The notes under the pieces are model-generated. The model searched no databases. It saw only the letters and a program-made list of their open reading frames with translations, and was not told the DNA's origin. From Eledone cirrhosa (taxonomy: Eukaryota), in assembly GCA_964016885.1 (NCBI GenBank), contig OZ024749.1, positions 30,318,001 to 30,382,000 on the forward strand: DNA of 64,000 bases, given 5' to 3'. How positions within the stretch are numbered: the stretch's first letter is position 1; the number at the start of each line of letters is the position of its first letter. Positions 1,043 through 52,397 of the stretch are shown here, piece after piece. The position numbers were made by a program, and so were the translations under genes.

Positions 1043-1975
1043 AGGAAAGAGATATTTATTTAATAATGTCTCATATAAAATAATACAACCAGCTATCCAC
1101 GAAATACTGATTAGTTAGCACCCCAAACAGTAAAATGGGATAATACTTAGGTATATCCTAATGTTTGTTGAGTGAGATTGAGTTGGTCAGAGTATCGCTT
1201 AAGACGTTCTCTGTTAATGTATTAAATTATATATATATATATATGGAAAAAAGATGAAATGAAAATGGAAAATGCAACTGGAGTCTTTTTTTGTTTAAAT
1301 ATATATTTATTTGGTTCCTTTACCGGTTTCGCAGGAACCAAATAAATATATATTTAAAAACAAAAAGACTCCAGTTGCATTTTCCATTTCATCTTTTTTC
1401 CTTATATTTTCACTCATGTAGGACACCTCGTTTTTTTATATTTTGTAAAAAAACATCACTTTCTAATATACATATATACAAATATGTATATATATATATA
1501 TATATATATATATATATATATATATATATATATATATATATATATATATATATATATATACACAGATACTACATACATATATATGTATAAAGAGAGAGAG
1601 AGGGAGTGAGAGAAAGAGAGAGCGAGAGAGATAGAGTGAGAGAGAGAGAGAACTACCACTACGTCTATGTGCTGGTCAACATTATAAGAATAAATCTGGG
1701 AATATTAAGATAGATGGAGATGTGTTTCCACTAAAATAAGAATACAGGTGAGGTTGATCGAAGTATGTAACATAATACTGATGTTTAGATCTAGTAAATG
1801 TTAGTGCAAAAAATACCATTGAACATTCTTTCTGAAAGGTCACGGAATCTATAGTTTTATAAAGAACAACAATAAACAGGACTGGTATAAAAACTCAACG
1901 TTATATATATATAGTATATTCAAACATATATATATACATATATATATATACATATATATATATATATATATATTG

Positions 1976-2096
1976 TGAAGGCGTGTGGCTGAGTGGTTAG
2001 AGAACTGGATTCGCAATCGTGAGGTTGTGAGTTCGATTCCTCGACCGGGCGATGCGTTATGTCCTTGAGCAAGACACTTTATTTCACGTTGCTCCT
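1976..2096 (+). mobile_element. tRNA-derived SINE family B (5' part)
   Basis: TGGCTGAGTGGTTAG A-box, GAGTTCGATTCC B-box, then GTCCTTGAGCAAGACACTT. Related minus-strand copies at ~14560-14815 and ~41030-41140. Confidence 0.75.
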
Positions 2097-3072
2097 TCTA
2101 CCTGGAGTTGCGACCGATAGATAGTATTAGCAATTGGAAAGACCAATGGAAACACTGATTCCTCGGTCCGATTTGACGAAAGTCGATCGTTAGGAAAAAA
2201 AAATATATATATATATATATATATATATATATTTCAAAACAACGAACAGCGGAGGACGCGTTTCGCACCTTTCCGACAGACAAAGTTTCCCCCCACCCAG
2301 GAAAAAACCCCAGTTGATGGATGTGAATCCGAAATATATAGGGACAATTAAATCTCCCCCAAGGTAACTCTCTCTCGTGTTGTTATTTTTATTTTTATTC
2401 TTTATGCTCTTTCCTTCATTCCTCTACACATCTTATTCACGCCACGCATCTCAACGTTCACCCACTTACATCTCTCGCTCTCCACCACCGGATCTTGTTA
2501 CCCGGAGGAGATTTACCCATTTGCATTGTCGAGGCTTCCAAACGACTTAAAGAAATTTACCTTATCATTCCACAATGCTTCAAGCAAACTTCAATACTCT
2601 CATATATATATATATATATATGGTATATTTCTTTAGGTCGTTTTAGAAGCCTCAACAATGCAGATGGGTAAATCTCCGGGCGACAAGTTCCGGTGGTGGA
2701 TAGAGAGACGTAAGTGAAAGTAGGTTGAGATGTGTAGTGTGTAGAAGAGTGTAGGAAAGAGCGTAAAGGATAACAATAATAATAACACGAGATAGAGTTA
2801 CCTTGGGAGTGATTTAATTGTCCCTATATATTTCGGATTCACAACCATCAACTGGGGTTGGGGGTTCCGGGATAGGGGGGTGGGGGTGGCTGAGGGAAAG
2901 GTTGTCTGTCGGAAAGGTGCGAAACGTCGGATGAATTGTACCTGTAAGTCAAAGAGTTAGATTTGTCACACTGTGTGTCTCGCTTACGACCCCCTCCTCC
3001 CCTCCCGCATGATAATTATTTTAAAGTGGTAAACGCAACTGTGGAATGCTCAGCCACTTAAATATTAATATA

Positions 3073-3250
3073 GGGCGGTGGATTGGCAGTATCGGCAGAG
3101 GGTCGGATGCCATGCTTTGCAGCAGAAAGTTACGGCCCTTTATGGTCTGAGTTCAAATCCCCCGATATTAACGTTTCCTTTCATCCTTACAGGATCGATT
3201 AAATACCCTTGGATAATTGCTGGCCTTGTGCCAAAAGTAGAAACAATGAT
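3073..3250 (+). mobile_element. SINE family A copy
   Basis: Same boxes and tail as 380-565. Confidence 0.8.
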
Positions 3251-3341
3251 TAAGTCTGTTAACAGCCACCATTTGCATTTAAAGTGCTGCCTACAGAACT
3301 TTGCCTAACCTCCTTCTGGGTGCTCATAACATAATGTACCA

Positions 3342-3530
3342 GTAATTCTTTCTACGTTAGGCACAAGGCCAGCAATTACCCAGTGCATTACTGGTACTTT
3401 ATTTTATCGACCCCGTAAGGATGAAAGGCAAAGTTAAACTCGGCGGGATTTGAACTCAGAATGACAAGGGCCGTAACTCTATACATCAAAGCAGAGCGTC
3501 CGACCCTCTACCAATACTGCCAATCCACCG
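3342..3530 (-). mobile_element. SINE family A copy
   Basis: Reverse complement of the family A consensus. Confidence 0.85.
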
Positions 3531-3542
3531 ACCAGTAATGTA

Positions 3543-49080: not shown

Positions 49081-49143
49081 TTTTATTATATATATTTCAG
49101 AGGTACTGAGTTAACTTCAACAGTACATCCTCATCAGATAAAA
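49081..49143 (-). ncRNA. Hammerhead (TATATA stem III family)
   Basis: ttttat-CTGATGA-ggat gtactg..cagtac ctct-GAAA-TATATA-TA-ataaaa. Confidence 0.68.
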
Positions 49144-50138
49144 TAAGATGATGCATGACATACACTGACATCTACCATGTCAGGGTACGTCATGCATTAT
49201 CGTACTTTTGAAGTTAACTCAGTACCTCTGAAATATGTATAATAAAATATACTTGATCACAAGAATATCTATTTTGTTAATATTTTGAATTAATATTATA
49301 TATATATATATATATATATATATATATATATATATACACATATGTGAATACACACACTCACACGCACGTACACACCCACACACACACACACTCACCCCCC
49401 CACCCACACACATATTTATATGTATATATGCACATATACATACATATATATATATACATACTATATATATATATATAGTATTTCCGTTAGAAACGAAACA
49501 TTACGAATGTATGTTAGTGTATGTTATAATTAATATCTCACGGTTCTATTGTTTTCTTTTCGGTAATGTTACAATACAGAACTTACATTTCATATGTCAT
49601 GATAGAAGAGACTTTTTTTTTACAACCTACCCTACAGCTTCAGTCTTTAGTCGTATCTTGCGATATTACAATCTTCTTTGTACTTTCAACATTCTTCCTT
49701 CTATTCTTCCTTCTCTCTCTCTCTCTCTCTCTCTCTCTCTCTATATATATATATATATATATATATATATAACGAAGGAGTTGTGCTAAGGAACAAGATG
49801 GACCATAACGCACCAGAGTACTCAATACTTAGGGTAGTAGAGTGGGTAATAGGAGAAAGTATGGCCCCGGGGTCATACTTTCTCCTATATATATATATAT
49901 ATATATATATATATATATATATTATATTATATTTTGAGAATAAACTCTCAGTCGTTTACAATAATTAAGCTCGAGGAAGGGGCTCTTCCGAGCAGTCAAT
50001 AGTGTACGATAAACACGAAATGTGTTTACATTGCAACAGACAAAGTTAGCTATTAATGAAATAAACTAATAAAAGTGAATACAATTTGTCTGTCTCGATA
50101 TAAGTCAATAAAGACAATATTATATTGGCAACTGCCAT

Positions 50139-50315
50139 GATTCCTGGACATATTTAAATTTCAAAATTCAAACCTGTTCTGTAGACGAATTTGAACCTCG
50201 AAACCCAAATAAGTTTCGCAACAGTGGAATGTGAATTGAAAAATAAAGAGAATCGAAATGGAATAGAAATAAAAGAGTGAGGTATCCAAATCTTCTGTGC
50301 TTATCAACAGGAATC
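50139..50315 (-). ncRNA. Giant hammerhead, U3-A8 core (TTGATAA)
   Basis: Inverted copy of 51148-51324; differs at core position 7 (T versus G). Confidence 0.75.
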
Positions 50316-51147
50316 CAGTAAGATTAGTCTATATCACATCAAAAATTTTGCAGGACTGACTACACGTGGGTAGGCAGGCCAAAACTAGCTATCCCACATT
50401 CACGGTGCTAGAAATAACAGCCGCTTATGCAGGATTAAGGATCAGCTCTTACAATAAAGGAGCAATACATTATATTATATTTTGAGAATAAACTCTCAGT
50501 CGTTTACAATAATTAAGCTCGAGGAAGGGGCTCTTCCGAGCAGTCAATAGTGTACGATAAACACGAAATGTGTTTACATTGCAACAGACAAAGTTAGCTA
50601 TTAATGAAATAAACTAATAAAAGTGAATACAATTTGTCTGTCTCGATATAAGTCAATAAAGACAATATTATATTGGCAACTGCCATGATTCCTGGACATA
50701 TTTAAATTTCAAAATTCAAACCTGTTCTGTAGACGAATTTGAACCTCGAAACCCAAATAAGTTTCGCAACGGTGGAATGTGAATTGAAAAATAAAGAGAA
50801 TCTTTATTGACTTATATCGAGACAGACAAATTGTATTCACTTTTATTAGTTTATTTCATTAATAGCTAACTTTGTCTGTTGCAATGTAAACACATTTCGT
50901 GTTTATCGTACACTATTGACTGCTCGGAAGAGCCCCTTCCTCGAGCTTAATTATTGTAAACGACTGAGAGTTTATTCTCAAAATATAATATAATGTATTG
51001 CTCCTTTATTGTAAGAGCTGATCCTTAATCCTGCATAAGCGGCTGTTATTTCTAGCACCGTGAATGTGGGATAGCTAGTTTTGGCCTGCCTACCCACGTG
51101 TAGTCAGTCTTGCAAAATTTTTGATGTGATATAGACTAATCTTACTG

Positions 51148-51324
51148 GATTCCTGTTGAGAAGCACAGAAGATTTGGATACCTCACTCTTTTATTTCTAT
51201 TCCATTTCGATTCTCTTTATTTTTCAATTCACATTCCACCGTTGCGAAACTTATTTGGGTTTCGAGGTTCAAATTCGTCTACAGAACAGGTTTGAATTTT
51301 GAAATTTAAATATGTCCAGGAATC
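51148..51324 (+). ncRNA. Giant hammerhead, U3-A8 core (TTGAGAA)
   Basis: gattcctg-TTGAGAA-gca..~80 nt..tgc-GAAA-c-[24-bp stem III with 8 G.U pairs]-GTC-caggaatc. Confidence 0.78.
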
Positions 51325-52397
51325 ATGGCAGTTGCCAATATAATATTGTCTTTATTGACTTATATCGAGACAGACAAATTGTATTCACTTTTATTAGTTT
51401 ATTTCATTAATAGCTAACTTTGTCTGTTGCAATGTAAACACATTTCGTGTTTATCGTACACTATATATATATATATATATATATATGTGTAAAAGTTCTA
51501 TTTAAATTGTTGGGATACAACAAGCAAATATTTTTATAACTGATATAAAGCACTCAACAAATAATTGGAGTAAAAATACGATATTAGTAGTTTCCAATTG
51601 TTAATATCATATATATATATATATATATATATATATATATATATATATATATATATATATATATATATGTATATATATATATACGATATTAACAAATGGA
51701 AACTACTAATATATATATATATATATATATATATCCCCCTCTTTCTCTCTCTCACTCAATATATGTAATATGTTTATGCATATGTATATGTATATATGTA
51801 TATATGTATATGAATATGTATATGTATACATGTATATGAATATGTATATGTATATATATATATATATGTATATGAATATGTATATATATATATATATGTA
51901 TATATATGTATATGTATATGAATATGGATATGAATATGTATACATATGTATATATATGTATATATATATGTATATATATGTATATATGTATATATATGTA
52001 TATACATGTATATATATATATATCACTCTGTCTTTCTCTTTCTTTGTTTTTTCTCTCTCACCGTTTCCTTGTTTGTGTGGTTCACCCTATCTCTTTCCTC
52101 AGCGTGTATATACGTATATTTCTGTTTGCCTCTATATATCTAGGTTTACGTGTATGTGTGTATATTCATATAGATGCATATATCTACCTATCTCTCTCTT
52201 GTTATCCACACATATACATATATAAAACACATACACATACACACACACATATATATGTGGGTGTGGGTGTAAAACATGACGACTGTACTTATAACATTAA
52301 ACAATCACTAATGAAGGAACACTTTATTCCTGTAAGTAGAGTGTATAATTTATTTTCTGTTTCTGAAGAATACAAGTGCAGTGATATCGAGAATGTA

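Follow-up and report, generated by a model that had tools for sequence, protein, structure and literature searches.

The inverted units of EN+ Penelope-like elements (PLEs) are the closest described counterparts of the inverted repeats treated here. They carry a 5′-truncated inverted copy at the 5′ junction in head-to-head orientation, a tail at one end only, partial tandems, a hammerhead motif in the pseudo-long terminal repeat (pLTR) and microsatellite targets (PMC3846280, PMC8557442, PMC8969392). Head-to-head is called the 'most frequently observed' arrangement in PMC3846280, where one of the inverted pLTRs is described as tailed and the inverted pLTR is explained by self-priming on an antisense template. 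PMC8557442 describes the same layout, calls its mechanism open and states that families of the Hydra clade nearly all insert in (TA)n, and PMC8969392 gives inverted pLTRs and tails as hallmarks for PLE curation. Here, we describe inverted repeats in a 64,000-nt stretch of Eledone cirrhosa DNA (contig OZ024749.1, positions 30,318,001 to 30,382,000; hereafter, the window), which are almost certainly genuine PLE insertions into (TA)n. Head-to-head inverted pLTRs, one-ended tail and (TA)n targeting are all already published PLE features; an earlier note on this DNA had taken the inverted pLTR at the PLE 5′ junction as established, and the first two papers confirm it.

Two further systems bear on the mechanism. 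The purified Anolis Poseidon PAc protein, a predicted dimer, cleaves and extends both strands of an AT-rich target, and starts at two RNA sites that bound the tail (PMC11167929); later integration steps are described there as unvalidated, and its main text makes no mention of inverted units. In L1 twin or dual priming (PMC2837659), two primed cDNAs leave inverted fragments with their 3′ ends outward, as in the units with non-overlapping arms reported below. It differs in that L1 uses this route as a variant, the internal site varies between insertions, sequence is deleted internally and the tail is poly(A).

Tails-out insertions in (TA)n

The window has 32% GC and abundant microsatellites. When the left arm was reverse-complemented and aligned to the right arm, 11 of the 12 pairs in the earlier list proved to be true inverted repeats, with an ungapped arm identity of 91.2–100%; the remaining pair, 10505-10615, lacks self-complementarity: it is a head-to-head union of a minus-sense tail piece and a plus-sense piece from farther upstream in the same family, so that there is no overlap between the arms. 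A BLAST scan of the first 57 kb with simple repeats masked returned 27 local inverted matches (<3 kb span) versus 0–1 per shuffle in 20 shuffles, and bases in head-to-head arms amount to 7075, or 11% of the window. The pairs had been described as flanked by (TA)n, and indeed 20 of their 24 ends lie within 20 nt of (TA)4+, compared with 8% of unmasked positions. Three of the four other ends missed it because the left boundary had been drawn too far inward and the tail omitted (corrected to 29609, 37255 and 48938), and the fourth, 10505, adjoins (GT)n. The ends at 13673 and 13995 touch (GA)n and (CA)n, respectively, and (TA)n follows 12–16 nt farther out. The list was selective, since it left out six tails-out units, two tails-in pairs, two units with an internally ending arm and at least nine non-inverted copies (Table 1).

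Assignment to PLEs is supported by hammerhead motifs, two ORF (open reading frame) remnants, partial tandems and tails, in agreement with the original attribution. A hammerhead descriptor built for this analysis gave 15 matches, where 20 shuffles averaged 0.85, placing a motif in the pLTR as in EN+ PLEs. Rfam at gathering score gave no match in the window; matches by E-value alone were dominated by microsatellite-driven microRNA matches and were discarded. The cores at 14173-14202, 26081-26110, 43719-43757 and 46017-46055 combine a palindromic stem III with a change, U3-A8 in family A and U4C in family E; such changes occur as natural hammerhead variants. Partial tandems forming pLTRs occur at 49921-50800 (548-bp unit), 39629-40529 (576-bp unit) and 17255-17749. 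A PLE-type reverse transcriptase (RT) with C-terminal GIY-YIG is found in ORF 11207-13489 and in the remnant 37836-38499, the Pfam GIY-YIG match being weak (E 0.016). The remaining units are short or non-coding and fall into at least 10 families, some of which also occur as solos or partial tandems.

The rule that the left arm is minus-sense and the right arm plus-sense holds in all 11 listed pairs that carry a marker. Eight of them have a descriptor match or an ORF: 1243 (where the matches sit on two other copies of the same family), 7322 (matched only by a looser core-plus-stem hammerhead pattern), 29698, 37305, 43673, 47128, 47746 and 49031. The other three (10505, 13673 and 18072) have partial hammerhead motifs only, judged by eye. 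Neither a hammerhead by the descriptor nor an ORF was found in 49921-51463, so that its polarity can only be presumed. The tails-out layout is largely forced, because directly joined arms whose 3′ ends were each primed on (TA)n must be head-to-head.

One-sided tails and the route of insertion

The earlier outline of the pairs omitted a feature of every typical unit, a tail on one side only. Across 18 such units (the 11 self-inverted listed pairs, 10505 and the unlisted 16827, 17229, 26257, 28621, 49772 and 51486), one end always carries a tail of 41–165 nt and a fixed internal site marks where the other stops, so that all have the 5′-truncated inverted copy and one-ended tail of EN+ PLEs. No tails-out pair with both ends tailed or both tail-less was seen among them. 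Published EN+ PLE tails are shorter, at 30–40 nt (PMC3846280, PMC8557442, PMC8969392). Outer ends fall on family-specific bases common to separate loci; in family B, the internal site is identical in four of four loci and the distal end base in three of four. A match of 2 nt or more between the internal site and (AT)n is present in 15 of the 18 units and in 10 of 12 families, versus a background of 22% (four rows were re-read by eye), and at most internal end points the match spans 2–5 nt. Arms are 91–100% identical to each other and 83–91% identical to other family copies in the five families compared, which indicates single insertion events.

Nesting of the arms separates two routes that the earlier note had named together, priming from both ends of a break in (TA)n and cDNA fold-back. 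A fold-back copy must lie within its template, and the arms are not nested in seven of the 18 units, so that in these, barring later central deletion, neither arm is a DNA copy of the other. Nine units are nested or symmetric, and two (7322 and 43673) are not assignable. Overlapping arms each have unique sequence at 1244, 26257, 47128 and 47746, and arms do not overlap at 10505, 28621 and 51486. The tail-less arm reaches farther 5′ by 15 nt at 1244, by at least 64 nt at 47128 and by at least 80 nt at 47746, and these extensions were matched to other family copies. In the three non-overlapping units, which supply three of the four tail-only arms, the tail arm starts no more than about 15 nt downstream from the internal site (rough p 0.02). 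Judged from the sequence, two-ended RNA-templated priming is favoured over fold-back, with a probability of about 0.6. In the openly accessible literature on PLEs together with twin priming, head-to-head arrangement and fold-back or self-priming, we found no paper proposing paired two-site priming, which older reviews may contain; 10.1101/2024.12.14.628481 deals with fold-backs at the scale of chromosomes and has no bearing on the question.

In two-ended priming, the GIY-YIG endonuclease of the element would nick both strands of (TA)n. One 3′-OH would prime at the distal (tail-end) RNA site and the other at the internal RNA site, 41–165 nt upstream; the two cDNAs would stop at variable points and then join each other. 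Arm junctions have 0–2 nt of microhomology where readable. If the distal cDNA stopped early, the arms would not overlap, much as when a single RNA undergoes L1 twin priming; arms that do overlap would require strand displacement, a second RNA or a pLTR repeated in tandem on the one RNA. Mobilisation would be in trans for most units, which are short or non-coding. Poseidon PAc agrees with this model in cutting and extending both strands, in having two start sites that delimit the tail and in its AT-rich target (PMC11167929). Unlike in L1, each family keeps to one second site, and the arms of most units overlap. Hammerhead cleavage as a rule for the 5′ junctions was rejected: the predicted cut site fits at 49772 and 1333 and fails at 47405, 48391, 18209, 16886 and 10568. 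At 49852-49885, where the junction lies at the predicted cut site, a 2-nt CG microhomology explains it equally.

Several observations weigh against two-ended priming. The nine nested or symmetric units fit fold-back equally well. Palindromes tend to lose their centres, so nested arms could become non-nested after insertion, and one-arm deletions are indeed present at 13673 and 49031. The tail-only arm at 17229 stops far from the internal site. Target-site duplications are unreadable because the target is (TA)n. The simple rule is broken by two tails-in pairs, by two inverted arms that end internally and by one metagenome locus (L043). This locus comes from a set of 77 Hydra-like metagenome loci, 21 of which had some inverted match; nine matches were judged element-derived and eight of these nine are head-to-head, which speaks weakly for the proposed route, since the contigs are short-read assemblies in which terminal inversions may be artefacts. 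Poseidon PAc initiates without target homology, whereas the internal sites here mostly match (AT)n, and it is reported without a strand difference in start site (PMC11167929).

Two of the metagenome loci have layouts of their own. An inverted copy of the ORF start lies downstream of the element in L043 (L043:1-84 and 2694-2777), the reverse of the usual polarity. L045:357-593 belongs to a Hydra-like ORF whose N-terminal part is inverted with a 38-bp junction overlap, resembling an L1 twin-priming inversion.

Fold-back is a possible, if rather doubtful, route. Here, one cDNA primed at the distal site would bend back at a short hairpin and serve as its own template; the product would then be resolved at the internal site, either through the endonuclease or through annealing with the opposite (TA)n end. 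Besides accommodating half of the typical units, it agrees with the position of the junctions of 16827 and 49921 within small hairpins, with the attribution of the tail to endonuclease resolution in PMC8557442 and with the argument for self-priming in PMC3846280. The seven non-nested units speak against it, as does the tail-less arm being the longer one at the 5′ side in 1244, 47128 and 47746. Under fold-back, non-nested arms would derive from later central deletion; however, the three non-overlapping units break near the internal site, which would be rare under random deletion. The antisense self-priming model of PMC3846280 is a variant of this route.

Two independent insertions in opposite orientation, side by side in one (TA)n tract, are an improbable source of the tails-out units. 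Insertions are densely packed in this hot spot, and such events probably explain the tails-in pairs 2232-2926 (89%) and 51581-51712, which are split by (TA)n, and a short interspersed nuclear element (SINE)-like pair at 3073-3533, whose arms are 87% identical to each other versus 90% to a distant copy. The tails-out arms, in contrast, are joined without intervening (TA)n, are nearer to each other than to other copies and always combine one tailed with one tail-less arm. For 2232-2926, a hammerhead-like hairpin gave the polarity together with a tail similar to the one at 37255; this pair could also reflect an alternative resolution of a two-nick intermediate.

An assembly or library artefact from chimeric fold-back reads is very improbable. 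Two long pairs are 99.5–99.6% identical, and junctions were judged from the assembly alone; however, 10 of the 11 listed self-inverted pairs have substitutions between their arms and seven also have indels, outer ends recur at the same family-specific bases in separate loci and the layout agrees with published PLE structure. DNA transposons with terminal inverted repeats (miniature inverted-repeat transposable elements or fold-back elements) are scarcely credible: inverted ends in a TA context do resemble TA-targeting elements of the former kind and 49921-51461 has no PLE marker, but the one-sided tail leaves the repeat terminal on one side only, junctions vary within a family, solo and tandem copies exist and arms carry hammerheads and a PLE ORF remnant. 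Non-LTR retrozymes, described as tandem repeats with a type I hammerhead per unit (10.64898/2026.07.22.740005), were also rejected, as the units are inverted pairs, solos and partial tandems, not hammerhead arrays.

Two-ended priming, or whichever route makes the inverted pairs, had been called dominant. This is roughly so in the window, the scope to which our counts apply, with 20 head-to-head units versus at least nine PLE-like copies without an inverted arm (14030, 20752, 26041, 28871, 30253, 31399, 39629, 41595 and 55376), where tiny unrecognised inverted pieces may remain. Compared with published EN+ PLEs, most units are small (0.1–2.6 kb) and non-coding, three have non-overlapping arms and about two-thirds of the PLE-like copies counted are inverted. 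In the atypical units 16019-16445 and 29286-29592, the inverted arm ends away from (TA)n though the unit is head-to-head. A 36-bp minisatellite (15623-16013), interrupted by a (TA)n run, adjoins the internally ending arm at 16019.

Coding sequences and neighbouring repeats

ORF 11207-13489 probably belongs to the Hydra clade, as judged by its motifs: IRWR at 36, ANKT at 118, CNCTKPGTC at 620, CKLCNLE at 718 and N...CNH at 737. These correspond to the RWK-like, DKT-like, CxCX5C linker, CxxC before E and CxH after N motifs described in PMC8557442 for Hydra-clade PLEs with a C-terminal GIY-YIG and no CCHH, the RWR and NKT of the ORF each being one residue off the published motif; a CCHH pattern was sought in the ORF and not found. 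The in-frame stop precedes the endonuclease core, and the ORF is otherwise nearly intact. Of 7184 candidates, 200 are homologous to it at E ≤ 0.001, the closest among the matches listed being 43% identical. No pLTR of its own was identified, and comparison of its flanks with the palindrome families found no shared pLTR. A link to the adjacent palindrome at 13673 was rejected as unsupported, a microsatellite lying between them.

The remnant 37836-38499 contains the RT thumb and a CCHH-type GIY-YIG endonuclease and represents another lineage. It is flanked by an inverted pLTR and a tailed pLTR, and two proteins labelled Octopus bimaculoides share 59% identity with its part 38014-38499 (2 matches among 94 candidates). 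No other listed pair holds ORF sequence; six-frame reading, tblastn and a Hydra hidden Markov model detected no ORF remnant in 7322, 43673, 47746 or 49921, and no relative was found in the viral_contigs database. In Octopus vulgaris, 31 recently active Penelope-like families are reported (PMC13282606).

Table 1. PLE-like units and coding sequences of the window, in order of position (+ and −, strands)
Position	Feature	In earlier list	Arms and markers	Tail
1244-1470	Family A unit, not nested	Yes	Tail-less arm 1244-1334 (−), 15 nt longer 5′; arm 1333-1407 (+)	63 nt, + arm
2232-2926	Tails-in pair, 89% identity	No	Tailed arm 2259-2602 (+); central (TA)9; tail-less arm 2621-2926 (−)	+ arm
7322-8527	Inverted unit	Yes	577/571-bp arms, 96% identical; hammerhead cores 7584 (−), 8285 (+)	43 nt, left
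10505-10617	Family B unit, non-overlapping arms	Yes	Tail piece 10505-10564 (−); piece 10568-10617 (+) ending at internal site	− piece
11207-13489	Probable Hydra-clade PLE ORF (−), RT and GIY-YIG		761 codon positions; one in-frame stop near 11535	
13673-13995	Family F unit	Yes	Tail-less arm (−); arm with two internal deletions (+)	58 nt, + arm
16019-16445	Family E atypical unit	No	Arm with hammerhead 16364 (+) ending at internal site; inverted arm ends internally	
16827-17019	Family B unit	No	Tail-less left arm	77 nt, right arm
17229-17749	Inverted unit	No	27-nt tail-end arm (−), then partial tandem (+) with hammerhead 17600, ending at internal site	− arm
18073-18241	Family B unit	Yes	33-bp tail-less right arm nested in left	77 nt, left arm
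26257-26418	Family D unit	No	Right tail-less arm ~7 nt longer 5′	98 nt, left
28621-28750	Family G unit, non-overlapping arms	No	Polarity only from tail logic and neighbouring copy 28871-29030	
29286-29592	Family D atypical unit	No	93-bp palindrome, then pLTR (+) with hammerhead 29402; inverted arm ends internally	+ pLTR
29609-30197	Inverted unit	As 29698-30198	Hammerhead 29841 (−) in 197-nt spacer	83 nt, left
37255-38748	5′-truncated canonical PLE (−)	Yes	Remnant 37836-38499; inverted tail-less pLTR 38503-38748	41 nt
43673-46265	Family E unit	Yes	1.03-kb arms, 99.6% identical; hammerheads 43719 (−), 46017 (+); 345-nt spacer	165 nt, right
47128-47650	Family C unit, not nested	Yes	Tail-less left arm at least 64 nt longer 5′	109 nt, right arm
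47746-48630	Family E unit, not nested	Yes	Tail-less left arm at least 80 nt longer 5′	137 nt, right arm
48938-49297	Family D unit	As 49031-49297	Hammerhead 49087 (−)	89 nt, left
49772-49885	Family B unit	No	Both arms start at predicted hammerhead cut site	77 nt, left
49921-51461	Marker-less unit	Yes	548-bp partial tandem; 661-bp inverted arm (99.5%)	78-nt extension, left
51486-51712	Family D non-overlapping unit 51486-51609, then tails-in pair	No	(TA)n and 29-nt piece (−) after the unit form the tails-in pair	

The spacer of the longest palindrome (44706-45050) is GC-richer, has no ORF match and possibly represents captured sequence. A palindrome at 27246-27410 is centred on (TA)n, has short unique arms and lacks a PLE marker. 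Other repeats include a dispersed SINE-like family of about 190 bp with 82–92% identity (381-561, 3073-3533, 21101-21215, 33146-33336, 34992-35183, 38895-39081 and 39406-39590), in which the inverted pair at 3073-3533 appears as independent copies. A 192-codon frame at 35329-35907 (minus strand) matches DUF6451 (E 3e-10), like the end of an ORF of a long interspersed nuclear element. Tandem arrays lie at 21422-23309 (43-bp unit, 44 copies, 96% matches) and at 57370-63900, where 24-bp units, variable in sequence, form a long array that shows higher-order periods (e.g. 696 and 2208 bp) and has several open frames.

Double-stranded RNA potential and meaning

The inverted arms had been expected to create double-stranded RNA (dsRNA) or cruciform substrates, and these are predicted only: the long units, if transcribed, would be 91–95% paired in the predicted fold. 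No editing imprint was found between the arms, A/G and C/T differences making up 17 and 19 of 80 substitutions. Octopus stands out in PMC5625713 for its dsRNA potential and its hyper-editing, and lizard Penelope is reported there as heavily edited; octopus was omitted from the repeat annotation in that study, which makes PLE hairpins a testable dsRNA source.

The architecture is ordinary for PLEs and would not surprise a specialist; it is a known layout in a new host context. What is added are the paired tail rule and the non-nested arms, through which the integration mechanism can be approached by counting. Wherever a good assembly exists, two simple counts, pairing of the distal with the internal site and nesting of the arms, can tell two-ended priming and fold-back apart. 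A bolder proposal, which we hold only tentatively and at somewhat less than even odds, is that PLE integration is a programmed twin priming, in which a dimeric enzyme, priming both strands of a (TA)n cut at two fixed RNA sites, would make the inverted pLTRs and the one-sided tail in one reaction and would fill the octopus genome with hairpins. If this is true, PLE hairpins could be a main source of octopus dsRNA potential and hyper-editing.

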